Both the position numbers and the translations under genes were made by a program. Shown here piece by piece: positions 1,527 through 57,989 of a stretch of DNA of 64,000 nt. The notes beneath the pieces were generated by a model. It saw only the letters and a program-made list of their open reading frames with translations. It searched no databases and was not told where the DNA came from. The DNA is from an uncultured Mollicutes bacterium (lineage in GTDB: Bacteria; Bacillota_I; Bacilli_A; RFN20; CAG-826): contig UQFN01000005.1 in assembly GCA_900540365.1 (NCBI GenBank), positions 21,231-85,230 on the forward strand, written 5' to 3'. How positions within the stretch are numbered: position 1 is the first letter of the stretch; each line of letters begins with the position of its first letter.

Positions 1527-2156
1527 ATGAAATTATTTAAAACTTCAAAACTTATAATGGTCACTGCCATTGCTTTAGGCTTAGCATCAGTCGTCGGTAT
1601 TGGTGTTGGTGCCTATATTATTACAGGAGGAAATAAAACCGCTGAAGTACCTGTTACTGATGATGATATAGTAATAACTAATAATGTTGTTAATTTAACA
1701 GCTTCTTTAAAATCAGATGATAATAAACTTGTCTATGAACCTACAGAAGCAGTAACCGGTAAAAGATTAAATTCAGATGGTAATGGCGACTTAGATGTTA
1801 CACTTGTTTTAAGTGTTGAAGCAACTTCAACAAATATTATTCCAACATTTACCGTATCTGTTGTATCAAGTTATAGCGCTGAATCACCTGAATTAACTGC
1901 TTTAAACACTTATTTAGTTAAACCATCTGATGTTACAGTTAGTAACACGGAATTTACTGGATCTGCTCCATACACTAAAGAAGTAAAATTAACTTGGGCT
2001 TGGGGTAGTGCTTTTAATACTACCGATCCTTGTACTTACTATAACAAAAAATCTGAAGAAGAAGTTTCAACTGCTACTTTAGTTAGCGAAATGGAAAGCT
2101 TTAGAGATAATGTTAATGGTAACACTTGGAAAATAGAAATTAATCCTGTAGAATAA
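1527..2156 (+). CDS. Cassette-1 protein A1: secreted/anchored protein with TasA/camelysin-style (SipW-dependent-type) signal peptide
   Basis: The track ORF starts at 1464, inside the putative promoter. ATG 1527 gives MKLFKTSKLIMVTAIALGLASVVGIGVGAYIITGG. This is a basic n-region plus an h-region ending G-x-G-A-Y, comparable to GGGTFAYFSD (camelysin) and GGGTWAAF (TasA). The gene lies directly 5' of a SipW-type peptidase. Confidence 0.65.
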   Translation: MKLFKTSKLIMVTAIALGLASVVGIGVGAYIITGGNKTAEVPVTDDDIVITNNVVNLTASLKSDDNKLVYEPTEAVTGKRLNSDGNGDLDVTLVLSVEATSTNIIPTFTVSVVSSYSAESPELTALNTYLVKPSDVTVSNTEFTGSAPYTKEVKLTWAWGSAFNTTDPCTYYNKKSEEEVSTATLVSEMESFRDNVNGNTWKIEINPVE

Positions 2157-2173
2157 ATAAATTTATTTTAACA

Positions 2174-10985: not shown

Positions 10986-12595
10986 TTACTTTAAAAATTG
11001 CTTTAAAAGAAATTATGTCATTAGCCTTTTTTAACAAAAAAGGTTATAAAAAGTATCTTTCGTTAGCTACTTCAATTATTTTAATGGCTTTTTTTATCTT
11101 CTTAGAATGTTTTTTATACATTATGATTTTTAATAAAGTCGATGTATTTATAGATTTAAATTATTCTTTAATTATTATTATTTTATCGATATTTACTTTT
11201 ATTGGAACAATCTATTCGATGATTACTTGTAATAAAATATTTTTCTCTAATAAAAAAGAAAGAATAATTTTAGGAATTTCTCCAGTTAATATTTTAGAAG
11301 TTATTATTGGAAAATTAATTTTTGTTTATTTAAAGACTTTTATTTATTTTACTTCAACCTTTTTTGTATTTGCTTTAACTTATGGAATTAAAGTTCAAAC
11401 AGATTTTATATATTTTATTTGGATGTTTCTTTCTATTTTTATTTTAAGTTTAATGAGTGTAGGATTAGGAATATTATTTACTATTCCTTTTAGAGAAATT
11501 ATTAAATTAGTAGTAAGGTTTAAAATTATTAGTTTTATTTTAATTGTTATTTTAATTATATTACTTGCTGTTGGATATAATTTATTAATGAAATTATTTA
11601 TTGATTTATTAAGAAATGCTTCTTTAGATACTTTATTTACAACTCAAAATGTAGAAACTTTAAAAAAAGTTGCTAATAGTTTATATCCTTTAAAAAGTGT
11701 TGTTGATTATGCTTTAGTAATTAATAGCGGAGTTAATGCTTTAATTATTTTAACTTTTAGTCTTTTATCTATTTTATTTGGAGTGTTCTTTTTCTACTTC
11801 TATTTAAAAAATTATTATCATAACGATGATCAAGCTAAAGATATTAATAAAGTAAAATCTAAAAAAGTAAAATTAATTTCTCCAATACAAGCTTTAATAA
11901 AAAAGGAATTTTTATTGTTATTAAATAATAATGATGGATTATTTTCATATATCTTTTTAGTAATTTTACAACCATTCCTTGTTTATAGCGTTATTTCTAG
12001 TTTAAATTTAATTTTTTCTACTGGTAATTTTATTTATATAAACACTTTATTTCCTGAAATTTATTTATGTGTTGATATTTTACCAATCTTATTATTTTTA
12101 TCAGTTATTAATATGACATCTTCAATGTCTTTAACAAAAGAACGTCAAACCTTAATCATTATGAAAACAATTCCAGTTTCCTTTTTTAAACAAGTATTAG
12201 TTAAACTAGGAGTAAATTTTGTTGTTTCATTAATATCATATATAGCAACATTAATTACTTTAATTGCTACAAAAGAAATTAGTTTATATACTTTCTTATT
12301 TTTAATTATTATTGGAACATTAGCTTTACTTTGTTTAAATATTATTTCAATTAAAAGTGATTTTAAATTTAAAGCAAATTCCGATTTATTATCAATTTTA
12401 GTTGGTTTTGTTTTCCCTGTTTTATATGTTGTAGTTGCCACAATATTTATAATTTTTATAGAAACTTCTCAAACTGAAATTTTCTTTTTAAGTATAATAG
12501 CTCTTTTAGAATTAATTACTTTAGGAATTCTACTAATTAAATTTAAATCAAAAATTACTGAACAATTTTTAAATTATGAGGGGGTAAGTCTATGA
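10982..12595 (+). CDS. ABC exporter permease, about 12 TM
   Basis: ATGA overlaps on both sides. The 537-aa protein is uniformly hydrophobic with two 6-TM halves. Confidence 0.7.
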   Translation: MITLKIALKEIMSLAFFNKKGYKKYLSLATSIILMAFFIFLECFLYIMIFNKVDVFIDLNYSLIIIILSIFTFIGTIYSMITCNKIFFSNKKERIILGISPVNILEVIIGKLIFVYLKTFIYFTSTFFVFALTYGIKVQTDFIYFIWMFLSIFILSLMSVGLGILFTIPFREIIKLVVRFKIISFILIVILIILLAVGYNLLMKLFIDLLRNASLDTLFTTQNVETLKKVANSLYPLKSVVDYALVINSGVNALIILTFSLLSILFGVFFFYFYLKNYYHNDDQAKDINKVKSKKVKLISPIQALIKKEFLLLLNNNDGLFSYIFLVILQPFLVYSVISSLNLIFSTGNFIYINTLFPEIYLCVDILPILLFLSVINMTSSMSLTKERQTLIIMKTIPVSFFKQVLVKLGVNFVVSLISYIATLITLIATKEISLYTFLFLIIIGTLALLCLNIISIKSDFKFKANSDLLSILVGFVFPVLYVVVATIFIIFIETSQTEIFFLSIIALLELITLGILLIKFKSKITEQFLNYEGVSL

Positions 12596-15117: not shown

Positions 15118-15123
15118 AATTTT

Positions 15124-15152
15124 AAAAAATAGTTGAGTTTTAAAAGATTTTT
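15124..15152. repeat. Copy of dispersed ~28-nt intergenic motif (reverse orientation)
   Basis: aaaaaatagttgagttttaaaagattttt, preceded by taaaatttt as in the long inverted repeats at 41518/45394. Confidence 0.55.
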
Positions 15153-15200
15153 AAAAATTCTAATGAGTTTTCTCTTAATAATATGCTTTATTAATAAATT

Positions 15201-18200: not shown

Positions 18201-18253
18201 AAAATCTCCTTAATATTATTGTATAACAATTAAAGTGTAATTTAAATTTTTTT

Positions 18254-18280
18254 AAAAAATAGTTGAGTTTTAGATGGTTT
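18254..18280. repeat. Copy of dispersed ~28-nt intergenic motif (reverse orientation)
   Basis: aaaaaatagttgagttttagatggttt, abutting the asnA stop. Confidence 0.55.
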
Positions 18281-19283
18281 ATAGTAAAATAACGCCTCTT
18301 TTTTCAAAATAATCTTTAGTTGATTGACTCCATAAAGAAGCTTGAACTTCTCCAATATGTAATTTTTTTAACATAAATAAGCAAACACGAGACTGACCAA
18401 TTCCCCCACCAAAAGTTAAAGGAATAACATCATTCAAAATCTTTTGATGATAATCATATTTTAAATAATCTTCATGTTTAGTTTCTTTTAACTGTTTAAC
18501 AAGAGAAACTTTATCAACTCTTATTCCAAGTGAAGAAATTTCAATAGCATTATCTAAAATTGGATTATATAAATATATATCTCCATTTAAATTCCAATCA
18601 TCATAATCAGGAGCACGATCATCATGAGGCATATTGTTAGATAATTTATTACCTATTCCAATTACGAATACTGCTTTATGTTCTTTAACATACTCATTAA
18701 CGCGTTCGTTTGGATTTAAATTTGGATAAATTTGTAATAATTCTTCGCTAGTAATAAAACTAATTTCTTTAGGAAGAATTGCTTTAATTTTGTATTCTAA
18801 TTCAACATATTGTTCTAAATCATATACGCATTTATAAATTTTCTTAACATAAGTTTTTAAGAAATTAAGATTACGATCGTTTTCATTAATAATTAATTCA
18901 AAATCCCATTGATCTACATATATTGAATGATAATTATCTCTTAATTCATCCTTTCTAATAGCGTTCATATCTGTATATAATCCTTGATGAACTTTAAAAC
19001 CATAACGATTAATATTTAATCTTTTCCATTTTGCTAGTGAATGAACAATTTCTATTTTATTTGTAAAATCTTTTAAAGAAAAATTTACTGGTACTTCTTT
19101 TCCACTAAGTCCATCATTAATTCCTTGATTAGATTCTACAAATAAAGGAGCGGTTACTCTTGTTAAATCTAAATTTTTAGATAATAAACTTTCAAATCTT
19201 TCACGAATATCTTTAATTGCTATTTCAGTTTCTTTTAAAGTTAATGCGCTTTTATATCCTTCAACGTAAATAAAGTTTTCCAT
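18279..19283 (-). CDS. asnA: Aspartate--ammonia ligase (asparagine synthetase A)
   Basis: 334 aa. N-terminal KETEIAIKDIRERFE...LTRVTAPLF and C-terminal GGGIGQSRVCLFMLKKLHIGEVQASLW are AsnA hallmarks. Confidence 0.9.
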   Translation of the reverse strand: MENFIYVEGYKSALTLKETEIAIKDIRERFESLLSKNLDLTRVTAPLFVESNQGINDGLSGKEVPVNFSLKDFTNKIEIVHSLAKWKRLNINRYGFKVHQGLYTDMNAIRKDELRDNYHSIYVDQWDFELIINENDRNLNFLKTYVKKIYKCVYDLEQYVELEYKIKAILPKEISFITSEELLQIYPNLNPNERVNEYVKEHKAVFVIGIGNKLSNNMPHDDRAPDYDDWNLNGDIYLYNPILDNAIEISSLGIRVDKVSLVKQLKETKHEDYLKYDYHQKILNDVIPLTFGGGIGQSRVCLFMLKKLHIGEVQASLWSQSTKDYFEKRGVILL

Positions 19284-24569: not shown

Positions 24570-24651
24570 ATAAACTTCCTTTATATTATTATTACATAAG
24601 TTGATAAAATTTAAAATTGTTTAAAAATAAACAAAATCACTAGTTTTTATT

Positions 24652-24680
24652 AAAAACCCTTTTAAACCCAATTATTTTTT
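24652..24680. repeat. Copy of dispersed ~28-nt intergenic motif (forward orientation)
   Basis: aaaaacccttttaaacccaattatttttt. Confidence 0.45.
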
Positions 24681-24700
24681 AAAAAATAAACTATTTTTTG

Positions 24701-25094
24701 TTTTAAATAAAATCTTTTAATAAGCTTTTGAATTTCAAATAAAACTAAAGAAACTAAAGAAATTAGTAACACATATAAATAATTAATTGGTTCTAAATAA
24801 ACTAATTGAAATATATTCATAACTTTAGGAGTAAAAACAATAAAAGCAACGACCCCTTAAGCTCCAAACAAAACGATGTAAAGCCATTTATTATGATCTT
24901 TTGGAGAAAAATAGAAACAATGTTTGATCTTTGATTAAACGAATGAATGATTTGTGAAATAGATAATACTAAAAATGACATAGTCATTGCAGCTTGAGGA
25001 TCTTTTAAACCTAATATTCAATACATATAAATACTAAAAAAACTTAAAGCAATAAAAATTCCATGGATTATTACCCTAATAGCTAAACTATTTG
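24701..25094 (-). pseudogene. Remnant of the C-terminal membrane domain of a P-type cation ATPase
   Basis: Hand translation gives ..YMY*ILGLKDPQAAMTMSFLVLSISQIIHSFNQRSNIVSIFSPKDHNKWLYIVLFGA*GVVAFIVFTPKVMNIFQLVYLEPINYLYVLLISLVSLVLFEIQKLIKRFYLK. It has in-frame TGA and TAA codons, and no ATPase body lies upstream. Confidence 0.6.
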
Positions 25095-25389
25095 CTATTC
25101 ATGATAAAGTTTTGCTAAAGGCTCAGTTTTAGCATAATATTCATCACTAGTTATTTCTTCCTTAATTTTATTTAATCGATTAAGAATAATCTCTTTTTCA
25201 TAATTAACATATTCATCAAAACTATTAAAATCTGGATATTTTGCTAAACAACCAACATCTAACATATCATTAAAACTATATCCTTAATATGAATAATCTA
25301 GAGGAAATTTTGTATTAACAAAATCGACAAAATTTTCGTTGTCGCTTTTAAATACTAATACACTACAGTTTTTTTAAATGTTCTTTCAT
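25095..25389 (-). pseudogene. Degraded small ORF of unknown family
   Basis: The ATG 25389 frame stops after 8 codons. Adding one nt to the T7 run at 25369-25375 restores ..CSVLVFKSDNENFVDFVNTKFPLDYSY*GYSFNDMLDVGCLAKYPDF..LAKLYHE. One in-frame TAA remains even then. Confidence 0.4.
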
Positions 25390-25401
25390 AATAAATTCTT
25401 T

Positions 25402-25429
25402 AAAAATAATTGAGTTTTAGAGATTTTTT
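25402..25429. repeat. Copy of dispersed ~28-nt intergenic motif (reverse orientation)
   Basis: aaaaataattgagttttagagatttttt. Confidence 0.55.
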
Positions 25430-25518
25430 CTTAAATTGATAGCTTTTTTACTTCCGTTCTTTATCTAAAATAGCATATTGATATGTATTTTCATATATAG
25501 GAGAGCCATCTTCTCTAT

Positions 25519-26172: not shown

Positions 26173-26797
26173 TTAAGGTTGCATAATACCAGCAAATACT
26201 AACCATGCAAGTAATGTTTTTGCTACTAAACTTAAAATGATATATACTCTTTCGCCGTATAAATAGTCTTTCCACTTTCCAACTTTTTTATATTGTAAGA
26301 CCATATTTATTGGGAATAAATTAAATAAGACAAAATAAACTGCTGCTATAACAAAAACAAACCAAGGAACAAGAGATAAATCTGCACAAGAAACTAAGTT
26401 AATTAAAAAAAAATCCAAGAACCAATCTCAGCAATTGAGCCAAAAATAAAAGGTAACCAATTGACTTTTTCTTTGCTTGATTTATTTTTTCCATCAATAA
26501 CCCAAATAAATTCATTGAAGCATTTAATAAGAAAATTAAAATTAAAGTACATATATCATAAATGCCAAATAATATAGCAATTAAAACCATCATTAAAGAA
26601 GAAGATAAAGCATATTCATACCATCTAAAAACATTAATATTATTTTTTAAACCTAAATTATAACAGTCATTAACTTTTTTAGGTAAACTTACTAAATGAT
26701 GAAAAATTGTTGATATAAATAAAAATAACAACACACAAATTCAAAAAGGTAAACTAAAAAAGTACTTTAGAACTTGATACTAAAAATCCCATATCAT
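26173..26797 (-). pseudogene. Heliorhodopsin remnant (5'-truncated, two frameshifts)
   Basis: Track ORFs 26399..26734 and 26173..26418, plus a short third-frame stretch (VNWLPFIFGSIAEIGSWIFF), join into a helices B-G sequence. Matching motifs: NVFRWYEYALSSSLMMVLIA, NASMNLFGLLMEK, LQYKKVGKWKDYLYGERVYIILSLVAKTLLAW. The Schiff-base Lys in LVAK is kept. The comparison is from my memory of heliorhodopsin 48C12. Confidence 0.75.
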
Positions 26798-26857
26798 TTA
26801 AAGTTAAATTTATAAACAGTTTTTATATTTTTTTATTAAAAAAATCTTTTTTTAAGT

Positions 26858-26885
26858 AAAAACCTTGCAAAACTGAACTATTTTT
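26858..26885. repeat. Copy of dispersed ~28-nt intergenic motif (forward orientation)
   Basis: aaaaaccttgcaaaactgaactatttttc, directly after the LysR stop. Confidence 0.55.
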
Positions 26886-27776
26886 CTATATTTTGTATTG
26901 ATGATACATTGATAAAATATTATCAACAATTTCTTGAGAAATAAAATCTTTCATAAAAACAATATTAGTTTCTCTAATCATATTCATATTTTCAATTGGT
27001 AAAATAGCTAATGAATGGTCTTTTAATTCACTAAAACAAACACTTCTAGGAAGTACGGATACTCCTGCTCCTTTTCTAATTAAATCTTTGATTGTAGCAA
27101 TATTATCAATCTCTAAAATAACATTAAATTCATCAATTGACATATTCATATTCATAAGTTGAGAAACAAATAAATTTCTAGTTCCACTTTGTTTTGAACG
27201 TAAAATCATCTTCTCTTTTTTTAAATCGTTAATATTAACAATCTTTTGCTTAGCTAAAGGATTATCTAAACTCATAACTGCTACTAAATAATCAGTATCA
27301 AGCAAGACACTAGAATATTTTTTCTCAGTGACTTTACCTTCAACAAAGGCTAAGTCAATCTCATAAGTTGATAATTTATCATAAAGATTTTTTATAGTAT
27401 CAGAAACAATTTTTATTTTAGTACCCTTATTATTTGCACAATAATTTGCTAAAACTTCAGCAACAATATTGCTCTCTGAAGTATGTGTAATTCCAATAAT
27501 TAAGCTTTTGGCATGCATCTTTTCATCTTTTAATTTAGACGCTAATTCATGATATAAAGAGACAATTCTTCTAGCATATTTAAGTAAAATCTCTCCTTCA
27601 GGTGTAATTTTTAAATCATTACCAACTCTATTAAATATTTTAATATTTAATTCAGTTTCAAGTTGTTTTATATGTTGACTAACTGCAGGTTGAGTCAAAT
27701 TTAATTTTTTAGCAGCTAGAGTGAAGTTTTTTAATTCACTTGCTGCTAATAAAGAAACTAGTTTTACATCTTCCAT
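26886..27776 (-). CDS. LysR-family transcriptional regulator
   Basis: wHTH FTLAAKKLNLTQPAVSQHIKQLE followed by a substrate-binding domain of about 200 aa. Divergent from the antiporter gene. Confidence 0.9.
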   Translation of the reverse strand: MEDVKLVSLLAASELKNFTLAAKKLNLTQPAVSQHIKQLETELNIKIFNRVGNDLKITPEGEILLKYARRIVSLYHELASKLKDEKMHAKSLIIGITHTSESNIVAEVLANYCANNKGTKIKIVSDTIKNLYDKLSTYEIDLAFVEGKVTEKKYSSVLLDTDYLVAVMSLDNPLAKQKIVNINDLKKEKMILRSKQSGTRNLFVSQLMNMNMSIDEFNVILEIDNIATIKDLIRKGAGVSVLPRSVCFSELKDHSLAILPIENMNMIRETNIVFMKDFISQEIVDNILSMYHQYKI

Positions 27777-32617: not shown

Positions 32618-32936
32618 CCCTCCTGTTGTCTATATACTGCGATTAATCTCTTTAATTTTAAATAAACAAAACTGTGATTTCGATAAACATTTTGTTGAGT
32701 TAATTTATAATTAAGTATTTATAAAATTAAATTATTCTAAAATAAAAACCTTACTTTATAATTATACTTTAAACTACTTGATTTTAATGTCATGTATAGA
32801 ATTCATATATTTTTTATTAAGATTAAGATATTATTTTTCTTTAATATTAAATAAATAAAAATATTTATTTTAAATTTTATTTAAGTTTTAAAAGGTTTTA
32901 GTTAAAAATTTACTTTTAATAATTAATAGGAACTAT

Positions 32937-38043: not shown

Positions 38044-38068
38044 TTCTTTTTAAAACTCAATTATTTTT
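38044..38068. repeat. Copy of dispersed ~28-nt intergenic motif (forward orientation)
   Basis: ttctttttaaaactcaattattttt. Confidence 0.5.
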
Positions 38069-38082
38069 ATAAAATTTCTATC

Positions 38083-40229: not shown

Positions 40230-40290
40230 AGACTCTCCTTAATTATTTAATATTGTATTAAATTAAATTATAAATTTAAATATTTAAATT

Positions 40291-40725
40291 TTATTTTAGT
40301 TTTAAAGGCTTTTTATTATTTTTTAAAGACAAATAAATAATTCTAAATATAAAATAAATTAGAAAAATAATTAAGAAAACTAAACATAAAATTATTAAAA
40401 TATTGTAACTATTTAAGTATAAATTAAATAATATTCCACTAACTAAACTAAAAATATTTACTCCTAAAGATATTAAAAATTCATATTTATTTTTATATAT
40501 AAAATATAAGATTAAACCTTCAAGTAAAAATATTATTATTTCTCCAAAGATTAACCAATATAAAGAATAATTTAATCTTACATATATAAAATTAAAAGTA
40601 AGATTAGTGAATACATTCATTAAAATAATATAAGATAAATTTAAAATAGTTTTTTTCTTATTTAATTCAAAATAAATTGGAGTTTCGATAAATAAAGTTA
40701 AAACGAGAGGAAATAAATATTCCAT
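40291..40725 (-). CDS. Small 4-TM membrane protein
   Basis: 144-aa hydrophobic ORF. Confidence 0.45.
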   Translation of the reverse strand: MEYLFPLVLTLFIETPIYFELNKKKTILNLSYIILMNVFTNLTFNFIYVRLNYSLYWLIFGEIIIFLLEGLILYFIYKNKYEFLISLGVNIFSLVSGILFNLYLNSYNILIILCLVFLIIFLIYFIFRIIYLSLKNNKKPLKLK

Positions 40726-40781: not shown

Positions 40782-41525
40782 ATGAATAAGAAACTTCTTC
40801 CTATTATAATTTGTTTAACTCCTTTATTATTAGCAAACGCTCCTGCTCCTGATACAAAGGTTTCTTATGAAGAAACGTTTTTACTAAGTAAAGAAGAATT
40901 TACATTAAGTGATAATATATTAAGTTTTAATTTTACTAATTCAAGTAAGTATTATATTACTTCTTTAAAATTAAATGATAATTATATCTTTGATTTTTAT
41001 TACTATGGGATGATTATTCCACCTTCAAAAACTACTTTAATTCAAGTTAATAATTTTGAAGAAAAAATCAAAGATAATAATGAAGTTAAAGTACTAGGAA
41101 AAGATTTTTCTATTTCATCTTCTAAAGTTAGTAATATTAATATAAATTCAGCTAATTACGATAGTGACACTAACTTAACTACTTTAAGTATAACTTATGA
41201 TTTTACTTATCTTGATAATATTTCTTTACAAGGAATATATTTTTATTTTTATTTAGAAGATAGTAATTCTTACTATGCTTCTAAAAGTGATTTATCAAAC
41301 TATAAAAAAGAAGAAACAACAAGTTTTACTTCTACTTTTTATTTTTTAAATGATGTTAGTTATTTAAAAAATGAAGATTTAAATTATTTTATTGGAACTT
41401 TAGATAATCGTTCAAATATTAATTTACTTACAATAATAATAGTAATTGGAGTAATTATTGTTGTTCTAGTTGTAAGTTTACTGATATTTATTTTATATAA
41501 AATTAGTTTTCATTATAAAAAATAA
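40782..41525 (+). CDS. Secreted protein with cleavable signal peptide and C-terminal TM anchor
   Basis: Signal peptide is MNKKLLPIIICLTPLLLANA/PAP. The C-terminal anchor is LLTIIIVIGVIIVVLVVSLLIFILY. Confidence 0.55.
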   Translation: MNKKLLPIIICLTPLLLANAPAPDTKVSYEETFLLSKEEFTLSDNILSFNFTNSSKYYITSLKLNDNYIFDFYYYGMIIPPSKTTLIQVNNFEEKIKDNNEVKVLGKDFSISSSKVSNININSANYDSDTNLTTLSITYDFTYLDNISLQGIYFYFYLEDSNSYYASKSDLSNYKKEETTSFTSTFYFLNDVSYLKNEDLNYFIGTLDNRSNINLLTIIIVIGVIIVVLVVSLLIFILYKISFHYKK

Positions 41526-41609
41526 AAATAAGTTAATAAAAAATTTCTGTATAATAATTATTTTTTATTACTAAAATTTTAAAAAATATTTAAGTTTTTA
41601 AAGGTTTTT
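41518..41609 (+). repeat. Left arm of ~92-bp inverted repeat flanking the nuclease/ATPase pair
   Basis: aaaaataaaaataagttaataaaaaatttctgtataataattattttttattactaaaattttaaaaaatatttaagtttttaaaggttttt. The inner 29 nt is a copy of the dispersed motif. Confidence 0.8.
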
Positions 41610-41626
41610 GAAAAAATTGCTGGAAA

Positions 41627-44143
41627 TTATATTTTTCTACTTTCATGACATGTTAAATAGATAATTTGGATATCTTTAGAGATTTTTTTAATAATATCAA
41701 TTGCATTTATTAAATGTTTTTCATCTAATTGTACAAATGGATCATCAAGTAAAACAAATGGTTTTTCATCTTTATACATGTTTTCAATAAGAGCTAATCT
41801 AAAACATAATTCACAAATTGCTTTATTTCCGCTTGAAAGATGTTTGTCGCTTCTTAAACCTCCAGCAATATCAAAAGTAATTTCTAAATTAGAATTCATT
41901 CTAAGTTTTGTTGAAAGTGTTTTTTCGATTAAATTTGCATATTTTGTAAAATTATTAACAAGTGGCATTAAATATTTATTATTTAAATTTCGATCTGCTT
42001 CTTTTAAATTTTCAATTGCCGCAGTAATTAAATCATAATTTTTTATATATTGTTTTTTTCTATTTGAAACTTCATTTAATTGATATTCTAATTCTCCTAA
42101 TCTTGAAATTTCATCTTCATCTTGAATAATTTCTTTTTCTAATAAATTGTAGTCTTTATCAATGTCTTCTTTTTCTTTATTTAAGTAAGTAAAATCTTTA
42201 GAAATTATTTCTTTAATAAGTTCTTCTTTTAATCTAAATTTTTCTAATTGTTCTTCATTTTCTTTATAAAAATTTAGAATATTTTGCTCTTCATTTTTAA
42301 TTTGAGTAGTTAATGAATTAAAGTCATTGATATCGTTTTTTACTTCTTCTATTTTGTCTAAAGAAATATGATATTTATTTAAAATATTATTGATTGAAGC
42401 TTGATTTTCTTTAATTTGTTCTTCATTAGTTTTATTTAAATTATTTAAAGTTTCTTGTTCTTTAAATAAAGCTATATATTCTTTTAAATTGTTAAATAAA
42501 ATTTCATAATTTTCGTTATTAGACTCTAAATAATATTTTCTTAAAATCGAAATAATACTAATTTCAAATTGGTTAATTTCTTCATTATTTTTTCTAATTA
42601 AAACCAAGTAATCGTTTTGTTGTTTAATGTAATTTAAATAGTTAGTTGCTTCATTAGAAAATAATATTAAAGAATTTAATATATTTGTTTCATTATAAAA
42701 ATTATATTTAACTAAAATTTCTTTAATTTCTCCATTTAGAGTTTTAGATTTTTGTTTTGTATAATCTTCACTTTTCTTTTTAATTTTATTAATGTAAACA
42801 ATGGTTGTAATTGATAATAAAACTCCCACAACTCCAATTATCAAACCAGCAATTAAATTAAAGAAAATAGTAACGAGTCCACCAATTAAAAGTATAAAAG
42901 AAAGAATTCCTAAAAGTAGGCTTGTAATCTTTTTATTTTTTAAATTAAGAGGTGGAGAATTTTTAAAATCATCACTATTAATTGTAGAAATATAATCTTG
43001 AACTTTTTTTAAATTTTCTTCGACTTTAGGATCGTCTTTATATTTAGCATCTAAATCTTTATTTTTTTCTTTTAAATCAGTTAGATTTTTATTAATTAAT
43101 TCATTAGTGCCTTTTATTTTTTTAACTTCACTAATTGTCTTAGTTAAATTATCAATATCTTCATTTTTAATATTTTCATTAATTAATGTTTCCTTATGTT
43201 TTTTAAATAATTTGCTTTTTTCTTCATCTAAAGAAAAGACTTGATTACTTAATTTATCGTTAACATCTTTTTTTGTTATTACTTCGATAATTTCATTTTG
43301 TAGTGGAATACCATTTAAGTAATTGTTTTTGATATTTTGTAATTTAACTTCATCTGCTTTTTTTGTATTTAAAAAATCTTGATATTTTTTATTAAGTTCA
43401 TTTAATTTAAAAGCTTCTTCCCATGAGTTTATTTTTGAATAAATTTCATTACGCTTATTCTCGATATTTTTTAGTTTATTATATTTAAGTGAAATATTCT
43501 TTTTAATTTGTTCTAAATTTCTAATTTGAATTTCAATTTCATACATTCTTTCTTTTGCTTTGTTAATATAGCCATTACCAAGGCCACGTTTATTGCGGTA
43601 CTTCTTTCCTTTTTCTTCAAGAAGTTTGATAGCGCTATCTAAATCAAATTTTTCTTCACCACCATAAATTGTCATTCCTAGTTTACTAGAAATTGAGCTA
43701 GTTGATTTAATATCAATTTCATTAGAGGTTATAAAGAAGATACGTTCAAATGAAGTTTTATCAATACCAAAAAAGTATGTTCCAAGAGAATAAATCTTTT
43801 CTAATTCTCTACTTCTTTGATTGTTTTTATAAACAACTAAAACATCATAATTAGCTGAATGTCTAGAAAAAGTTCTTTCTATACGATAAGCATTGCCTTC
43901 ATGTTCAAATTCAATATTTCCTCCAAATTTATTATTGTTAAAAGGATAAAATCTAATTCTTTCATTAAATTTTGAAGTACTATAATAATTTTCTAATCCA
44001 TAAAACATTGCTTTAATAAAACATACTAATGTAGTTTTCCCATAACCATTTTCTTCATAAAAACTACTTAGATTAGAGTCAAAGTTATATTTATATGCGG
44101 ATAAATTTCCAAAATTTTCTATATATAATGAAATTAATCTCAT
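41627..44143 (-). CDS. SMC/SbcC-like AAA ATPase of the YhaN (AAA_27) type with a TM hairpin in the middle of the coiled coil
   Basis: N-terminus is MRLISLYIENFGNL..ENGYGKTTL (Walker A). It has long Lys/Glu/Asn-rich coiled coils. The central TM segment is SLLLGILSFILLIGGLVTIFFNLIAGLIIGVVGVLLSITTIVYI. C-terminal motifs are LSSGNK (signature) and FVLLDDPFVQLD (Walker B). Confidence 0.8.
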   Translation of the reverse strand: MRLISLYIENFGNLSAYKYNFDSNLSSFYEENGYGKTTLVCFIKAMFYGLENYYSTSKFNERIRFYPFNNNKFGGNIEFEHEGNAYRIERTFSRHSANYDVLVVYKNNQRSRELEKIYSLGTYFFGIDKTSFERIFFITSNEIDIKSTSSISSKLGMTIYGGEEKFDLDSAIKLLEEKGKKYRNKRGLGNGYINKAKERMYEIEIQIRNLEQIKKNISLKYNKLKNIENKRNEIYSKINSWEEAFKLNELNKKYQDFLNTKKADEVKLQNIKNNYLNGIPLQNEIIEVITKKDVNDKLSNQVFSLDEEKSKLFKKHKETLINENIKNEDIDNLTKTISEVKKIKGTNELINKNLTDLKEKNKDLDAKYKDDPKVEENLKKVQDYISTINSDDFKNSPPLNLKNKKITSLLLGILSFILLIGGLVTIFFNLIAGLIIGVVGVLLSITTIVYINKIKKKSEDYTKQKSKTLNGEIKEILVKYNFYNETNILNSLILFSNEATNYLNYIKQQNDYLVLIRKNNEEINQFEISIISILRKYYLESNNENYEILFNNLKEYIALFKEQETLNNLNKTNEEQIKENQASINNILNKYHISLDKIEEVKNDINDFNSLTTQIKNEEQNILNFYKENEEQLEKFRLKEELIKEIISKDFTYLNKEKEDIDKDYNLLEKEIIQDEDEISRLGELEYQLNEVSNRKKQYIKNYDLITAAIENLKEADRNLNNKYLMPLVNNFTKYANLIEKTLSTKLRMNSNLEITFDIAGGLRSDKHLSSGNKAICELCFRLALIENMYKDEKPFVLLDDPFVQLDEKHLINAIDIIKKISKDIQIIYLTCHESRKI

Positions 44144-45201
44144 AAATCGTACTCCTTGCCTTCAAGAGCTCTTAATCCAAGATTAATAACTTTAACTTTA
44201 TCGTTATCATTTAAATCTTTAGAATTTAAAACGTTACGAACAAATTCACCTTTAATAGAAACTTCATCTTTATATTTTGAGATATCAAAAGTTTTAGTTG
44301 TCTTATCTTTTATTGAAAGATAACCAACTTCTTTACGTAATCTTGAACTTAAATCATCGACTAAATCTTCTATATCACCATTTAGGGAACCAGTTAAGTT
44401 AATTCGATATATTTCATCTTTGGATAATAAATAATTTTGTTTAATTAATAAATAAATTTCATTAATAGTTTTGGCATTTGTAACATCAATTGTTAATTCA
44501 TTAATTTCTTCTCCATCACAAACATAAAATTTATGAGTAATTGTTTTATCTTCTATATTTATAACAACAAAACCTTTTTGGCCTGTTTCATCAAATCCTC
44601 TTCCAACTAAACAACCTGGATAAACATAATAAGTATCATTTTCAAGAATTCCAGATTGATATTGATGAACATGTCCTAATGCTAAATAATTTATGTTTTT
44701 ATCATTTAAACTTTTAAGATTAATATTATTAGGAGCAATTGTATTAGAAACTTGTCCATGCAATAGCACAATATTGACATCATTTTTATCTAATAACAAA
44801 GTAGAATATAAGCTTTTAAAATTACTTTCATCCATCTCAATTCCACTAATGGCAACATTACCATATCGATATAATTTCCATTCATTATTAAATAATTTTA
44901 AATTAGGTAATGTTCTATTATGTGCACTATTAGAATCATGATTTCCTTTTAAATATAAAAAATCAATCTCACTATTATCTTTGATTATTTCATAAAAGAA
45001 ATCTTTATCTTTTTTAATAGGAGAATCGCTATCAAAAATATCTCCAGTTAATAAAATAACTTTTATGTTATTTTGAGATGCATAGTTAACTACATATCTA
45101 AATCTTTCACGAATTAAATTCTTTCTTTGAATAGCTATTTCTTTTGGAAATGTGCCTATTTTAGATCCTAAATGAAGATCACTGACATGAATTATTTTCA
45201 T
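44140..45201 (-). CDS. Mre11/SbcD-like metallophosphoesterase (YhaO-type DNA repair exonuclease)
   Basis: Phosphoesterase motifs HVSDLHLG, GDIFDS, LKGNHD, LLHG and LGHVH. ATGA overlap with the ATPase gene. Confidence 0.85.
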   Translation of the reverse strand: MKIIHVSDLHLGSKIGTFPKEIAIQRKNLIRERFRYVVNYASQNNIKVILLTGDIFDSDSPIKKDKDFFYEIIKDNSEIDFLYLKGNHDSNSAHNRTLPNLKLFNNEWKLYRYGNVAISGIEMDESNFKSLYSTLLLDKNDVNIVLLHGQVSNTIAPNNINLKSLNDKNINYLALGHVHQYQSGILENDTYYVYPGCLVGRGFDETGQKGFVVINIEDKTITHKFYVCDGEEINELTIDVTNAKTINEIYLLIKQNYLLSKDEIYRINLTGSLNGDIEDLVDDLSSRLRKEVGYLSIKDKTTKTFDISKYKDEVSIKGEFVRNVLNSKDLNDNDKVKVINLGLRALEGKEYDL

Positions 45202-45301
45202 AAAATCCCCTTAATAGTTATTATTATTATAACTATTATCATACAATAAAAAAATGATTATTTTAAAATTTTAAAATATATGAAAAATGTTATTTTTAGA
45301 T

Positions 45302-45394
45302 AAAAAAACCTTTAAAACTCTACTATTTTTTAAAATTTTAGTAATAAAAAATAATTATTTTACAGAAATTTTTTATTAACATATTTTTATTTTT
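45302..45394 (-). repeat. Right arm of ~92-bp inverted repeat
   Basis: The reverse complement reads aaaaataaaaatatgttaataaaaaatttctgtaaaataattattttttattactaaaattttaaaaaatagtagagttttaaaggttttt. It differs from the left arm by 5 mismatches and 1 gap. Confidence 0.8.
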
Positions 45395-45447
45395 GAGAAG
45401 AGTATTTATGTAAAATATTGTTTTAACTATATTTAAGAGGGAATCTT

Positions 45448-45866
45448 ATGAAAAAAGGAAAAATTTTTTACTCTTAACAGGTATAACATGCGCATTAGCT
45501 CTTAGCTCATGCGAAAGTAAACCTTCTTTCGAATTAACCATTGATAAAGACGAAGGTGTTAACCAAGTTACTCTTTATGATAGTGAAACAGTTTTTAGTG
45601 ATTTAGAAAATATTAATTTAGAGAAGAAAAATAAAAATATTATTATTTTGTCAGAATCTTATTATTATTGTATCTTATGTGCTTATTCTGATATAAAAAC
45701 TAATGTTAAAGTATACGATAATTTATTAAAAATAAATAAAGACCGAATAATTATTGAATCTGAACTATATAGTGATTATTCAAAAATAACATCCCCAATA
45801 TTCGAATTACGTTGTTCATTAAATGAAAATGAAGCAGCTAAAATAATAAAAAAAATCGCTAAATAG
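45448..45866 (+). pseudogene. Small lipoprotein gene, out of frame after the start codon at a poly-A tract
   Basis: RBS AAGAGGG plus ATG 45448, but this frame stops at 45475. Adding one A to A6 (45451-45456) or A5 (45459-45463) gives MKK(R/G)KNFLLLTGITCALALSSC|ESKP... This reading is open to 45866 and contains track ORF 45648..45866. Confidence 0.65.
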
Positions 45867-50248: not shown

Positions 50249-50361
50249 GATTAATTATTTAATAATTTTTAATTGATATTTCTTAAAAATATAAGGTTAA
50301 ATTTTTGTTATATATATTAATATTTGTCTGCTGATACATTAAAAAAGTGCTTTATTTTTAT

Positions 50362-50390
50362 AAAAAGTATGCAAAACTAAACTTTTTTTT
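50362..50390. repeat. Copy of dispersed ~28-nt intergenic motif (forward orientation, diverged)
   Basis: aaaaagtatgcaaaactaaactttttttt. Confidence 0.45.
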
Positions 50391-50892
50391 AAAATTTTAG
50401 CCAATTAATTAATATGTCATCAATATTAGATTGATTAACTTCATGTCCCTTAATTGCTAAACCATCTTTGATAATTGCAAGTGGATATTTACTTTTTAAA
50501 ATTTTAATAATATTTCCAAGTCCACTTCCTTCATGTGTAACTAATGGCATAATGATTTTATTTTCCAAATTTAAATTATCTAATAATGAATATATTTCAT
50601 AAGGATATTCACCAAAATAAATAGGTCCAGCAACAATAATGTAGTCATATTCATCAACATTATTTAAATATTGTTTTAACTTAGGTCTTAAATTGTTTTG
50701 CATGTTAAAGGGTGCTTCTTTTACACATTCTTTATAATTAGGAGAATATTCTTTAACAGGCTCACATTTAAAAAGATCGCAATTTATTAATTTTTTAATA
50801 TGATTTGCTAATACTTCTGTATTACCAACTTTTAAATTACCAACCGCATAATTTTCGTTTGCTCTTGAAAAAAATATTAAAATTGATTTCAT
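50389..50892 (-). CDS. Flavodoxin-family protein
   Basis: 167 aa. MKSILIFFSRANENY..GNTEVLANHI has the layout of flavodoxin_4-type proteins. Confidence 0.7.
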   Translation of the reverse strand: MKSILIFFSRANENYAVGNLKVGNTEVLANHIKKLINCDLFKCEPVKEYSPNYKECVKEAPFNMQNNLRPKLKQYLNNVDEYDYIIVAGPIYFGEYPYEIYSLLDNLNLENKIIMPLVTHEGSGLGNIIKILKSKYPLAIIKDGLAIKGHEVNQSNIDDILINWLKF

Positions 50893-52651: not shown

Positions 52652-53560
52652 ATGATAATTTGTGTTGGTGAAATTTTATACGATTGTTATGTGAATAAAC
52701 AAAATGTATGCGGTGACTTAACTATTAATGCTCATCCAGGTGGCGCTCCTTATAATGTAGCATGTAATTTAACATATCTAGGTGATAAGGTATGTTTTAT
52801 AGGAAATGTTGGTAATGATATTTTCGGTAAAGAATTAAGAAAACATGCTTTAAGTATGAATTTTCATCATATATCAATTTTAAAAAAATTTAATACAACT
52901 TTAGCACTTGTTTCTTTAGATGAAAATAATGAACGTAATTTTTCTTTTATAAGAAAAAATGGAGCAGATTTTCGATTTAAAAAATTACCTTTTAAACTAG
53001 TAAATAAAGCAAAAATAGTTCATTTTGGATCGTTGATGCTTTCAACAAAAGAAGGAAGAAATTTCATTTTAAAAGAATTAAATTTATTAAAAAAATCAAA
53101 TGTTTTTTTAACTTTTGATGTTAATTATCGAAATGAAATTTTTACTAGTCAAATAAACGCTAAGAACTTTTACTTAAAAATTCTTCCTTATTTTAATTTA
53201 GTAAAACTAAGTGAGGACGAAGTATTTTTTCTAACAAATTTAAACGATATTGATGCAGGCGTAAAAATGTTAAAAAAAGATTTTCAAATTTATATAGTAA
53301 CTTTGTCAGATAAGGGTAGCAAATTATATTATCAAGATAAGATTTATTTTGAGAATTCAAAAAAAGTAAATGTAGTTGATACAACGGGCGCTGGAGATGC
53401 CTTTTTAAGTGGAGTATTACATTACATAAATAATAAAGACATTAAATATAATGACGAATATTTTCACAACCTACTAGAATATGCTAATTGCTTAGGAGCG
53501 TTTAGTGTCACACACGAAGGAGCAATTTCTAATAAAATTTCTAATTATTCAATAAAATAG
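52652..53560 (+). CDS. PfkB-family sugar kinase (fructokinase-like)
   Basis: Motifs GGAPYNVA and DTTGAGDAF. Confidence 0.85.
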   Translation: MIICVGEILYDCYVNKQNVCGDLTINAHPGGAPYNVACNLTYLGDKVCFIGNVGNDIFGKELRKHALSMNFHHISILKKFNTTLALVSLDENNERNFSFIRKNGADFRFKKLPFKLVNKAKIVHFGSLMLSTKEGRNFILKELNLLKKSNVFLTFDVNYRNEIFTSQINAKNFYLKILPYFNLVKLSEDEVFFLTNLNDIDAGVKMLKKDFQIYIVTLSDKGSKLYYQDKIYFENSKKVNVVDTTGAGDAFLSGVLHYINNKDIKYNDEYFHNLLEYANCLGAFSVTHEGAISNKISNYSIK

Positions 53561-53582
53561 TTTACTTTTGCAGGGTTTTTTT
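53558..53582. repeat. Partial copy of dispersed motif (reverse orientation)
   Basis: tagtttacttttgcagggttttttt, starting at the kinase stop codon. Confidence 0.4.
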
Positions 53583-53653
53583 ATATTTTAAGGATTTTAA
53601 CTACATGAATATTTTAATTTAATTTAGTAAAAATAAAGTGTATATTAAATCAT

Positions 53654-54355
53654 ATGAAAAAATATTTTGAACTTATTGATTGCTTATTGTTATCTTATTT
53701 AGGTGGTTTTTTAGATGGATATTCTCTTTTGTTTAGAGGTAATAAATTCACCTGTATGCAAACTGGAAATATCATATATTTTGCTATTGATTTAGTTAAT
53801 AAAAATTATGATTCTCTTTTATTTCCATTTTATTTATTTATATGTTTTGTAGTTGGTTTAATATTTGCCTATCTTTTCGAATTTTTTCTTGTTAAATATA
53901 AAAAAGAAAAACTTGTACATCCTTTATTTTTAATAGTTATTTTGCTACTACTATTACCAAACTTTTTTTATGGAAAGACTAATGGAATTGATGACTCTTT
54001 AATTTGTCCTTTGTTAATGAGCATTTGTGGAGGTATTTTATTAGAGTCTTTTACAAAATTTAAGGTAAAATTTACTCCTACAATGATGACAAATAATACC
54101 AAACTAATGGTTAACTCATTTTTAGATTCTTTTTTATATAAAAATAAAAGTTACTTATATAAAGGCATAACATATATATTTGTTATTGTATTTTTTGTTT
54201 TTGGAGTAGCTTCATCAGCTTTATTAATAAACTTTACAGCATTAGCACAATATACAATTTTCCTTGCTTTTATTGTAATTATTCTTTTACTAGTTAATGA
54301 ATTAATAATTAATAAAATTTCAATTAATGAAATAAATTCCAATGATTCAATTTAG
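53654..54355 (+). CDS. YoaK/DUF1275-family membrane protein
   Basis: The LSYLGGFLDGYS motif near the N-terminus, with 6 TM helices. Confidence 0.7.
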   Translation: MKKYFELIDCLLLSYLGGFLDGYSLLFRGNKFTCMQTGNIIYFAIDLVNKNYDSLLFPFYLFICFVVGLIFAYLFEFFLVKYKKEKLVHPLFLIVILLLLLPNFFYGKTNGIDDSLICPLLMSICGGILLESFTKFKVKFTPTMMTNNTKLMVNSFLDSFLYKNKSYLYKGITYIFVIVFFVFGVASSALLINFTALAQYTIFLAFIVIILLLVNELIINKISINEINSNDSI

Positions 54356-54503
54356 ATATAAAATTTATAAATAAATCGTTTATCTAAACAATATAATAAA
54401 TAATTATAAAAAGGTTTTAAAAAGAATTAAATTTTATGAATATTAATATGTACATTTATTACTTTTAAAGTAAAATTTTAGTTTCTTTATATATAATATT
54501 TAT

Positions 54504-55970: not shown

Positions 55971-56031
55971 ATAATTCTCCTTTTATTTAATTATAAATGA
56001 TTAATTATTTTTAAAAAACTACTAATTTTAG

Positions 56032-56060
56032 AAAAAACCTTGCAGAACTAACTTATTTTT
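56032..56060. repeat. Copy of dispersed ~28-nt intergenic motif (forward orientation)
   Basis: aaaaaaccttgcagaactaacttatttttc. Confidence 0.55.
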
Positions 56061-56204
56061 CGAGTTTTTTTCTTAAAAATTTAATATTAACTTCTGATTC
56101 ATTTTTTAAAAATTATAACAAAATCAATAAAACTTAATTTTATAAAGCTAAACTATTTAGTTTAAAAAAAGAAATAATTTAAAACTCTAAAATATTTTTA
56201 TTTA

Positions 56205-56575: not shown

Positions 56576-57649
56576 TTAATAATCGCTAGTTTTGAATTTA
56601 TATGAAGTTTTAAATTTTTTATCAAACTTGCCATAAGGTACTAAGTAATTTTTTTCTTTATGGAGTCTTCCTAAAACAATGCAAGGATGAATTCCAACAC
56701 TATTTGCAAATTCGATAATTGAGTCTTCAGTAAAACAATTTTTATTTATATAATCGTTCCATTTATCGTTAGAAATTAACATCTCTGCAGCTATTAAATC
56801 AGCTTCATCATCTTCGTCATTTTCAATATTTATTAATGTTTCTCTACGATGTTCCATTAAGACATGGGATATTTCATGAAACAATGTAAACCAAAATAAA
56901 TCTGCTTTCTCACCTCTATTTGAAATTGCTAGCATGACATTATCCTTGCTAAACCATTTTGTTGCTCCATAAATATAAGATTTTGATAAATAAGGTAGTA
57001 AAACAAAAGAAATACCACATTCATTTAAAATATATTTTAATCTAGGTAAAAAATCTTCTAAATTTTGTTTCGTCATTCCTCTAATTTCTGGAATATATTC
57101 AATTAACATATTCTTATTAAAAGGGATTTCATTTTTCTTTCTAGCTTCATTTAAAGCTAAAGCAATCCAAAAGTTTTGAGCAAAATAATCGACTTCTTTT
57201 TTTGTATGATGTTCTTTTAAACAAACAAATAAGTCCTTTTTATCTAAAAGCATTAAACTATTTACTCCAACTACTTCTCTACACTTATTAATAATTTCTT
57301 CCTTTGTAAAATTATTAAAAACATAACCATAATCTATTAAGTAATTTTTTACTTTGCTTGCAAAAACCCATTCTTTTTTAAGTTCTTCGTTTTTATTTAA
57401 TTCTTTTAAATATACGTTGTATTGTGTTTGTAAATTAGTCCAATAATTAATTGAGTTATCAAAAAATATTGATAATTTATATGCAATATCAAAAGTAAGA
57501 TCACCGTTCCCAGTAATTAGTGCAGAAATTGTTCTTTCTGAAATTCCTGTTCTAAGTGAAAATTCTTTTGCAGTCATTTCCATAGAATCTAATAATTCTT
57601 TTAAATAAACACCTGGATGAAATCTTTTAATACTCGCCATAATGGTCAC
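56576..57649 (-). CDS. HigA-type XRE antitoxin domain fused to an ImmA/IrrE (COG2856) zinc metallopeptidase domain
   Basis: The N-terminal FHPGVYLKELLDSMEMTAKEFSLRTGISERTISALITG is a HigA-like HTH. The HExxH motif lies in LFHEISHVLMEH. The gene overlaps the upstream toxin-like gene by 23 nt. Confidence 0.75.
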   Translation of the reverse strand: MTIMASIKRFHPGVYLKELLDSMEMTAKEFSLRTGISERTISALITGNGDLTFDIAYKLSIFFDNSINYWTNLQTQYNVYLKELNKNEELKKEWVFASKVKNYLIDYGYVFNNFTKEEIINKCREVVGVNSLMLLDKKDLFVCLKEHHTKKEVDYFAQNFWIALALNEARKKNEIPFNKNMLIEYIPEIRGMTKQNLEDFLPRLKYILNECGISFVLLPYLSKSYIYGATKWFSKDNVMLAISNRGEKADLFWFTLFHEISHVLMEHRRETLINIENDEDDEADLIAAEMLISNDKWNDYINKNCFTEDSIIEFANSVGIHPCIVLGRLHKEKNYLVPYGKFDKKFKTSYKFKTSDY

Positions 57650-57989
57650 TTATCTCCTTAATTCTTATTTTCTTTACACTTTTTAAAAATTCTTTTTCGT
57701 TTTCTGTTGGAACAAGAACATTATTGTTTTCATCGAGCATTTGTATTAATATTCGCCACTTACTTTTTTTCTTATCTAGTGATAACGAATAATAATTTTT
57801 TAGATTACCTTTTTTATGTTCCATATAGAAATATATATTAACTTTTAAATCATAAGCATTGTCTGCTGCATCTAAAACACCAAGTAAAAGTAACATTCCT
57901 CTTGATATAACCTTACCATATTTCCTAGTCATGTACTTTTCATCTTCATATTTATTTTTCAAACTTGGCGGGCTATATTCATATTCCAC
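57627..57989 (-). CDS. HigB-like (RelE/ParE superfamily) toxin candidate
   Basis: 120 aa. LLGVLDAADNAYDL..MEHKKGNLKNYYSLSLDKKKSKWRILIQ...IRIKEISDHY follows the HigB pattern (L.G.....YS.r.....Ri.f......v.i.dYH). Confidence 0.55.
   Translation of the reverse strand: MEYEYSPPSLKNKYEDEKYMTRKYGKVISRGMLLLLGVLDAADNAYDLKVNIYFYMEHKKGNLKNYYSLSLDKKKSKWRILIQMLDENNNVLVPTENEKEFLKSVKKIRIKEISDHYGEY

Follow-up and report, generated by a model that had tools for sequence, protein, structure and literature searches.

An inverted repeat around an sbcCD-like gene pair in an uncultured gut bacterium is a relic of an inverted duplication, probably of a lipoprotein gene's 5′ region

Introduction

This study concerns a stretch of 64,000 nt from an uncultured Mollicutes bacterium (assembly GCA_900540365.1, contig UQFN01000005.1, positions 21,231 to 85,230), here called the window, and within it a pair of overlapping genes resembling sbcC and sbcD that is bracketed by an inverted repeat of about 92 nt. 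A sequence-only reading of the window had offered three explanations for the repeat: a mobilisable or recently inserted cassette, an invertible segment, or gene conversion between two copies of a larger repeat element. Comparison of the locus among strains leads us to conclude that the repeat is a relic of an inverted segmental duplication and not a transposable or switchable cassette. To judge from the alignments, the two arms are probably paralogues of each other, derived from the 5′ control region of a surface-lipoprotein gene and left behind by an old inverted duplication.

The comparison uses the sbcCD locus from ~13 other samples of the same species, all of them metagenome assemblies, whose contigs are cited below by L numbers. 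The A type of strain comprises the window, L023, L025/26, L032 and L033; the B type comprises L003/4, L017/18, L019/20, L027 and L028; and the D type is L021.

The genes at the locus

The two genes between the arms lie on the minus strand, and the claim of the sequence-only reading that nothing else lies there was borne out. One (41627..44143) encodes a Rad50/SbcC/YhaN-like ABC ATPase of 838 amino acids, and the other (44140..45201) a Mre11/SbcD-like metallophosphoesterase of 353 amino acids; they overlap by 4 nt at the sequence ATGA. The phosphoesterase matches Pfam Metallophos (E=1e-13) and Mre11/SbcD entries in the PDB (E=5e-8), and reaches 58 bits with the NCBIfam sbcd subfamily model, under its cut-off of 77.65. 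The ATPase has a split ABC head, with AAA_23 above cut-off at the N-terminus (33 bits) and a Rad50 C-terminal head at residues 653-834; its matches to Rad50 heads in the PDB have E=3e-5. AAA_15 and AAA_27 fall below cut-off, the latter at 16.4 bits vs 22, and several database homologues carry PF13514. The earlier description of the pair as SbcCD/YhaON-like is thus fair at the superfamily level, but the AAA_27 score and the NCBIfam equivalog and subfamily models, for which both proteins stay below the curated cut-offs throughout, do not take it further.

The arrangement, in which a phosphoesterase gene overlaps the gene of a long, split-head ABC ATPase, is that of SbcCD/Mre11-Rad50 and of Bacillus YhaO-YhaN (SbcF-SbcE). 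Unlike SbcCD/Mre11-Rad50, the window ATPase has a hydrophobic stretch in place of the CxxC hook. The protein has no central CxxC zinc hook, its only cysteines being at positions 41, 777, 780 and 832, and where the hook would be expected, in the middle of the coiled coil, about 45 residues (~406-450) are hydrophobic. From their sequence, these residues are probably two membrane helices that form a membrane hairpin. PADLOC gives a weak LmuB-like match for the ATPase (E=3e-12) and a generic endonuclease match, which are insufficient to assign the pair to a defence system. The pair may act in repair or in defence.

The best sigma-70-like site for sbcD, TTAAAA-17-TATGAT, comes from a consensus scan only and lies at 45238..45267 on the minus strand. 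This candidate promoter region is conserved across all strains. It sits inside the arms, and would move together with sbcCD if the segment were inverted. On the far side of the left arm is a gene on the plus strand (40782..41525) for a secreted or membrane protein of 247 amino acids, of unknown family; it is convergent with sbcC, and the outer end of the arm is adjacent to, or overlapped by, its final codons and stop.

In two further contigs, L005 (positions 21-3638) and L006, the region corresponding to window 41624-45253 holds an sbcCD allele with 74% DNA identity to that of the window and 57% amino acid identity in the ATPase. Next to it, the CotH region has 94% identity to that of the window, so that the gene pair is an outlier in divergence within a conserved neighbourhood. 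These two contigs have no left arm, no 247-aa gene and no 144-aa gene.

Members of the 90% cluster of the ATPase are named Candidatus Onthovivens sp., uncultured gut Bacilli, and the window ATPase is also encoded on NCBI contig ULOB01051052.1 (GCA_900522185.1). Genetic code 4 was considered in view of the GC content of the window (24%) and was rejected: TGA ends seven ORFs and never occurs in frame, and calls made with the standard code give full-length domain matches. Since TGA is a stop codon, sbcD ends at 44140 and not at 44134. The codon CGG is nearly unused in the window, with 2 occurrences in 52 ORFs vs 273 of AGA, and Onthovivens is among the lineages predicted to read CGG as Trp (2026 paper, PMC13092985). 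Neither sbcC nor sbcD contains CGG, and their translations are therefore unaffected by how it is read.

The inverted repeat

The left arm (41518..41609, minus strand) reads leftward, away from sbcC, and the right arm (45302..45394, plus strand), which is defined by its homology to the left one, reads rightward toward an ATG at 45448; both thus point outward from sbcCD. A blastn alignment of 41518-41609 with 45394-45304 has 93.5% identity over 92 nt, with 5 mismatches and 1 gap, which agrees in length, identity and coordinates with the repeat as first noted (~92 nt, ~93 percent). A repeat finder run on the window returned nearly the same pair (41513-41609 and 45303-45399; 97 nt, 90% complementary). 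The longest exact run common to both arms is 36 nt. An extension of the left arm to 41489, in a blastn alignment of 121 nt at 87%, was rejected as AT-rich noise: in the alignment with L021 the sequence beyond 41518 is the flank of the neighbouring gene, and the same alignment confirms ~41518 as the outer end.

Each arm has two parts, which the strain alignments separate. The inner ~36 nt are a copy of a motif that is dispersed through the window, and the outer ~55 nt (~53-56 nt in the left arm) correspond to the beginning of the sequence upstream of a lipoprotein gene. That the inner third is a dispersed motif and that the outer two-thirds are confined to the two arms had both been claimed from the letters of the window, and both claims hold. 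The motif has 15 copies there by nhmmer, and a 49-nt core of the outer part occurs exactly twice, once in each arm, with an expectation of 0 from 100 dinucleotide-preserving shuffles. The 92-bp element as a whole would have been a less telling feature had it been common at unrelated intergenic sites, and such dispersal is seen for its inner third and not for its outer two-thirds.

Searches beyond the locus gave little. The exact 28-nt arm pattern has no match in the GTDB species representatives, a set that holds no close relative of this species, and a protein-seeded scan of the same representatives found relatives at 27-40% identity only. Three metagenome matches to a 23-nt arm pattern lie in unrelated DNA of 32-43% GC and were set aside as chance. 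The ends of one Logan contig (L002), which lie inside both arms, were ascribed to the assembler stopping at a repeat that exceeds k, and not to biology.

The arms are continuous with a lipoprotein gene in other strains

The identity of the outer part of the arms comes from the B-type strains. There, a conserved TAAAAT, a ribosome-binding site (RBS) and ATGAAAAAAGGAAAAAA follow downstream of sbcC and lead into a lipoprotein gene, and in the alignment of the arms the homology likewise runs on through TAAAAT, the RBS and ATGAAAAAAGGAAAAA. The intact lipoprotein, which in L003 begins MKKGKNFLLLTGITCALALSSC..., has 1125 amino acids, or 1124 in L019/20. On the right-hand side of sbcCD in the window, the full duplicated tract (45302..45607, plus strand) extends well beyond the arm and comprises the motif, a putative promoter and leader, the RBS AAGAGGGA, the ATG and about 52 lipoprotein codons. 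Aligned with the sequence that follows sbcC in B-type strains, this tract has 84.6% identity over 311 nt, and it encodes the same lipoprotein N-terminus, signal peptide included, as the gene of L003.

As a consequence of this homology, the inverted repeat around sbcCD in L003, L017 and L018 is much longer than in the window, at 311-319 nt with 83-85% identity, and it includes 54 codons. The full ~310-nt repeat is seen only in those B-type strains that keep the full right copy (L003/4, L017/18). In the window the left copy is truncated, and the 92-nt repeat is therefore the residue of a longer one. Since in other strains the arms run on into flanking gene sequence, their outer ends are joints left by deletion or fusion and not the termini of an element.

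A search of 5.8 billion protein clusters with the lipoprotein N-terminus retrieved only the intact gene and the chimeric ORF described in the next section. Several expressed paralogues were not found in these clusters; only two loci carry the N-terminus, and one of them is the chimera with a MerR-like tail.

The right copy: a chimeric gene and its joints

In the window the right copy of the lipoprotein 5′ end runs into a frameshifted, chimeric ORF (45448..45866, plus strand). Lipoprotein codons (MKKGK.NFLLLTGITCALALSSC...) extend to 45599, an 8-nt microhomology (GATTTAGA, 45600-45607) that is present in both parent sequences follows, and the remainder is a MerR-like tail. This tail corresponds to the last 87 codons of a MerR-like protein of 278 amino acids that is intact in L021, from which it differs at 3 of the 87 residues. 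In place of window 45340-45593, L021 has a 2.9-kb block that comprises an 85-aa ORF, a 62-aa ORF, a MatE gene and the 5′ two-thirds of the MerR-like gene. L019 and L023 keep a short remnant of this MerR-MatE block, and in L019 the right tract is replaced by 139 bp. The inner joint of the right copy (45339/45340) is the exact 3′ end of the motif, and breakpoints fall at 45338-45340 in L015, L019, L021 and L023.

With an inner joint at the end of the motif and an outer joint at a microhomology within the MerR-like gene, the right arm together with the lipoprotein 5′ end (~306 nt) is best read as a derived, inverted paste-in. By the evidence of these aligned joints, the right copy is demonstrably the derived duplicate, and it replaced the ~2.9 kb that L021 retains.

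The joints also suggest how the duplication might have come about. It could have arisen by recombination with homology on one side, or by template switching, in which the inverted motif copies flanking sbcCD would have served as the anchor and the event would have been resolved at the 8-nt microhomology. Subsequent changes would then comprise a deletion on the left side and a gene fusion on the right.

A process of this kind, homology-facilitated illegitimate recombination, is known from work in Acinetobacter and Streptococcus pneumoniae. There as here, a homologous anchor lies at one end and a microhomology at the other, and resident DNA is replaced, as in template switching also. The present case differs in that the donor is intrachromosomal, inverted and at a distance of only 3.7 kb; no uptake of foreign DNA need be assumed, and the mechanism is deduced from the joints. 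The event is a fresh instance of an already known kind, in an uncharacterised organism. Its value lies in being a sequence-resolved case of a duplication that is anchored in a short dispersed repeat, is closed at an 8-nt microhomology and yields a chimeric ORF.

A homopolymer tract of A5, in contrast to A6 in the intact paralogue, puts the ATG at 45448 out of frame. All strains that have the chimeric locus show A5 there (L001, L003, L017, L025 and L032), and L003, L017 and L019 have A6 in the intact gene. Phase variation through this tract was considered and rejected, since its length is constant per locus across strains; the one in-frame variant (P0198) comes from an assembly that looks error-prone. 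A new in-frame ATG is present in L032 and L033, owing to a G-to-T substitution in the RBS region (AAGAGGGA to AAGATGGA), and gene callers predict a lipoprotein-like product of 142 amino acids in these strains (P0197, MESYEKRKNFLLL...). On account of this ATG and these gene calls, some strains may express the chimera. An internal deletion in the right copy of L027 and L028, between two AAATTTTTTA repeats, removes the RBS and ATG.

Mycoplasmas are known for families of paralogous surface-lipoprotein genes with conserved 5′ regions, such as vlp of M. hyorhinis and vsp of M. bovis. The present locus resembles them in that the upstream region and signal peptide are repeated, with an LSSC lipobox and an A tract that sets the frame. 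It is unlike them in having two copies only, one of them a dead chimera, and in its fixed tract and its use of TGA as a stop.

The left copy: truncation and alleles

On the left side, the window strain lacks the lipoprotein gene together with the genes that lie behind it, and the left arm is accordingly a 92-nt stump. The A-type left copy ends ~55 nt past the motif, where the 3′ flank of the 247-aa gene (40782-41525) starts; this gene adjoins sbcC in A-type and D-type strains only. In L021, the left copy extends for 122 nt, with a 101-aa ORF and a hairpin beyond it. We consider the left arm of the window to be probably an inert promoter fragment, which at most would fire in the antisense direction.

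The arm sequences fall into three types. Within them, identity is 93-97% for alpha-L (the left arm of the A type), 94-96% for R (the right arms) and 90-95% for beta-L (the left arms of the B and D types). Between types, alpha-L has 86-91% identity with R and 69-79% with beta-L. The two arms of one strain are no more alike than those of different strains: over the compared stretch, identity to the strain's own arm is 90% in the window and 86% in L025, as against 88-91% between strains. The alpha-L allele is common to L001, L023, L025, L032 and L033, and L023 carries it without having a right arm. Both the lack of elevated identity within strains and the state of L023 argue against recent homogenisation, and recent gene conversion in the window strain was rejected because left and right identity is not raised within it. 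The proposal of gene conversion between copies of a larger repeat comes closest of the three and is in essence correct: a larger unit of ~310 nt does exist, and its right copy is derived. There is no sign of recent or ongoing homogenisation.

The alleles allow a second history, in which the left arm is a later patch that was copied from the right arm by gene conversion. It would account for the fact that alpha-L is closer to R (86-91%) than to the orthologous beta-L (only 69-79%), and for the switch to R-like sequence starting at the end of the motif. Set against this are the stability of alpha-L across L001, L023, L025, L032 and L033, of which L023 has no right arm, and the identity to a strain's own right arm, which is not raised. 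In addition, alpha and beta are unlike in the 17-18 nt that separate the sbcC stop from the motif, which fits an old allelic divergence, and one duplication from left to right from an alpha-type donor explains all of these observations in a single event. We regard a later patch as possible, and as the strongest of the alternatives, but doubtful. The left arm is thus either a remnant of the donor allele or a later copy of the R type.

The dispersed motif

The motif that forms the inner third of each arm has a consensus of about AAAAACCTTnnAAAACTnAACTATTTTTTAAAATTTT, and its 15 window copies (nhmmer E<0.02) all lie in intergenic DNA or overlap gene ends by no more than 13 nt. The copy in the left arm (AAAAACCTTTAAAAACTTAAATATTTTTTAAAATTTTAG; 41571..41610, minus strand; E=2.9e-6) starts 17 nt after the stop of sbcC, and that in the right arm (45302..45341, plus strand; E=8.6e-7) has at its 3′ end the position 45339/45340 at which strains switch. 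To the left of the gene pair there are copies at 468-505, 1354-1391, 15115-15153, 18249-18282, 24651-24685, 25392-25430, 26856-26894, 32867-32899, 38048-38076 and 40278-40315; the two arm copies are numbers 41571-41610 and 45302-45341 in this series, and 50361-50399, 53554-53580 and 56031-56069 complete it. A stop codon lies within ~115 nt of 11 of the 15, and orientation relative to neighbouring genes is mixed. The pair at 24651-25430 faces each other over ~700 bp that contain no ORF of at least 90 aa.

Orthologous copies are conserved between strains. The motif was not found in ~100 kb from more distant relatives, nor in L005/L006. A reading as an RNA element was rejected: Rfam has no match at the gathering threshold or at E<=1, neither strand forms a stable hairpin (z-scores of -0.5 to +1.8 relative to shuffles), so that there is no structure beyond that of shuffled sequence, and a consensus scan of 41300-45700 detected no terminator-like site.

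A share of the strain breakpoints coincides with the motif. Of the 14 distinct breakpoints that separate the window from other strains, 5 or 6 fall within 15 nt of a copy, namely 38072, 40298, 41594, 45339, 53548 and perhaps 41624. This is far above a uniform expectation, and ~2-3x the expectation if breakpoints are confined to intergenic DNA. We take the coincidence as a modest lead and not as a finding.

Two of these strain differences are as follows. In L015 (GCA_034116585.1), positions 12550-14010 hold an IS3-family element with rve and HTH_Tnp_1 genes, inserted inside the motif downstream of sbcC at window ~41594. Its flanks are inverted 5′ halves of the motif (...AAAAACCTTTTAAAAC before the IS and TTTTGTAAGGTTTTTT... 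after it), and an integrase/Rep_trans element follows. The configuration suggests an IS3 insertion targeted to the motif, with a later IS-mediated inversion, in L015. The second difference concerns a DUF1275 gene (53654-54355), which is absent from L003 (window 53548-54401 compared with L003:569-596). One breakpoint of this indel is 6 nt from the motif copy at 53554-53580, and motif-like sequence is present at the L003 joint.

A broader reading would make of the motif a REP-like hotspot of recombination and insertion, an anchor for cassette replacement and the preferred target of an IS3-family element, situated on both sides of a fast-diverging, membrane-anchored Rad50/Mre11-like pair with a possible role in defence. 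We put this forward as speculation that is rather unlikely to be right in full. If it were true, the motif would structure variation in gene content in a gut lineage with a reduced genome, and would anchor both the duplication of the lipoprotein 5′ end and the indels of MerR-MatE, DUF1275 and YidD. Short dispersed repeats are well known in other bacteria, among them the REP/BIME sequences of enterobacteria, which are the target of IS1397, the Correia and dRS3 repeats of Neisseria, and BOX and RUP of pneumococcus. The motif shares with them its many short intergenic copies, its presence at rearrangement junctions and an IS inside one copy. It differs in having no palindrome, hairpin or terminal inverted repeats, and was not found in other genera. 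Whatever its role, a species-specific intergenic repeat at strain breakpoints is hereby flagged in an uncultured gut lineage that lacks genetics.

A further possibility is that the arms are retained as a functional pair, either as a protein-binding insulator or as an upstream operator and a downstream termination or 3′-end signal for sbcCD. All close strains do have an outward-facing motif on either side of sbcCD, save where the IS interrupts it, and the proximity of 11 of 15 copies to stop codons and the conservation of orthologous copies would also fit. However, such a role would cover the ~36-nt motif only, the outer two-thirds being dispensable on the right in L015, L019, L021 and L023. 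The lack of a hairpin, terminator-like site or Rfam match, the mixed orientation relative to genes, and the absence of the motif from L005/L006 and the distant relatives make it improbable as well. We infer that the arms have no function as a pair.

Is the segment mobile or invertible?

Inversion of the 3.7-kb sbcCD segment, by RecA-type or site-specific recombination and perhaps with an effect on its own expression or that of its neighbours, has some features in its favour: the inverted repeats are real, their 36-nt exact run could support rare homologous exchange, and strains differ at both flanks. However, a single orientation of sbcCD is common to at least 12 contigs, drawn from at least 11 samples, with sbcD toward the AAL-decarboxylase gene and sbcC on the opposite side, and this is so even in B-type strains with the 310-nt repeat. 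An inversion would moreover switch nothing, because the candidate sbcD promoter is internal to the arms, which themselves both face outward; like would be exchanged for like and nothing reconnected. The arm sequences do not form reciprocal mosaics, and the 64-kb window has no recombinase among its ORFs of at least 90 aa. We therefore hold an invertible segment to be very unlikely. Like invertible switches such as Hin/Gin, fim, the shufflons and vsa and mpl of mycoplasmas, the locus has inverted repeats around a segment near surface-protein genes. Unlike these, it has a single orientation, no recombinase and outward-facing (putative) promoters within the repeats.

The mobilisable or recently inserted cassette, a non-autonomous transposable unit or island made of sbcCD and terminal inverted repeats, is scarcely credible: inverted repeats do bracket a two-gene module, sbcCD is divergent in L005/L006 (74% nt vs 94% in the flank) and mobile elements adjoin the module in L015, but the module keeps a constant locus in all strain contigs while its arms are present, absent or truncated independently of it, their outer ends are deletion or fusion joints, there is neither a target-site duplication nor a transposase, and no further copy was found. 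The independence of the arms is seen in L019, which has a long left copy with the intact lipoprotein gene and no right arm, and again in L015, where the IS3 element interrupts the left motif. The sequences flanking the arms (...TCATTATA outside the left and GAGAAGAG... outside the right) share no direct repeat. Domain searches and the Pfam table reveal no transposase, integrase or recombinase domain in window ORFs of at least 90 aa, in agreement with the sequence-only reading. Another copy of the 3.7-kb unit is lacking in the window and the fetched strain loci, and GC content between the arms is not distinct from that of the neighbourhood. Composite transposons and cassettes bounded by terminal inverted repeats also have inverted repeats on both sides of a small gene module, but here transposase and target-site duplication are missing, the boundaries vary by strain and the arms are continuous with neighbouring genes. 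The sbcCD pair itself is probably a resident chromosomal operon and not cargo.

Points that weigh against the duplication of a lipoprotein 5′ region

Several observations run counter to the derivation of the arms from a lipoprotein 5′ region by inverted duplication. First, a sigma-70 promoter could not be located in the putative promoter or leader sequence of the arms: the scan for sigma-70-like sites gave 35 vs 39.5 expected from shuffles, and the hits in the arms are no better than those in shuffled sequence. Second, the right arm is ~90% identical to the truncated alpha-L and only 72-79% identical to the beta-L that drives the intact gene. Since the right arm is closer to alpha-L than to beta-L, the donor allele has to be postulated and is not observed. 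Third, the postulated ancestor, with both an intact MerR-MatE block and an intact lipoprotein gene, occurs in no sampled strain. Fourth, the inverted repeat is kept at 86-94% in several A-type strains, which possibly reflects weak selection. Finally, minority inverted forms would not show in metagenome assemblies.

Even with these points, we consider an inverted duplication of the lipoprotein 5′ region to be the probable origin of the arms. A false lead is thereby removed: the repeats look like those of a mobile or switchable defence cassette, and the strains show a decaying inverted duplication. Current understanding of SbcCD and of mobile elements is unchanged.

Other features of the window

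Two observations lie apart from the repeat. A stretch that varies among strains (56576-57989, minus strand) contains an ORF for a HigB-like toxin of 120 amino acids that overlaps one for an HTH_3 protein of 357 amino acids, and the two are a possible toxin-antitoxin pair. On the same strand, an ORF of 111 amino acids (26399-26734) matches only positions 62-153 of the 242 in the heliorhodopsin profile (E=4e-32). Either the gene is truncated or its start is disrupted. A heliorhodopsin is unusual in a gut Bacilli lineage.

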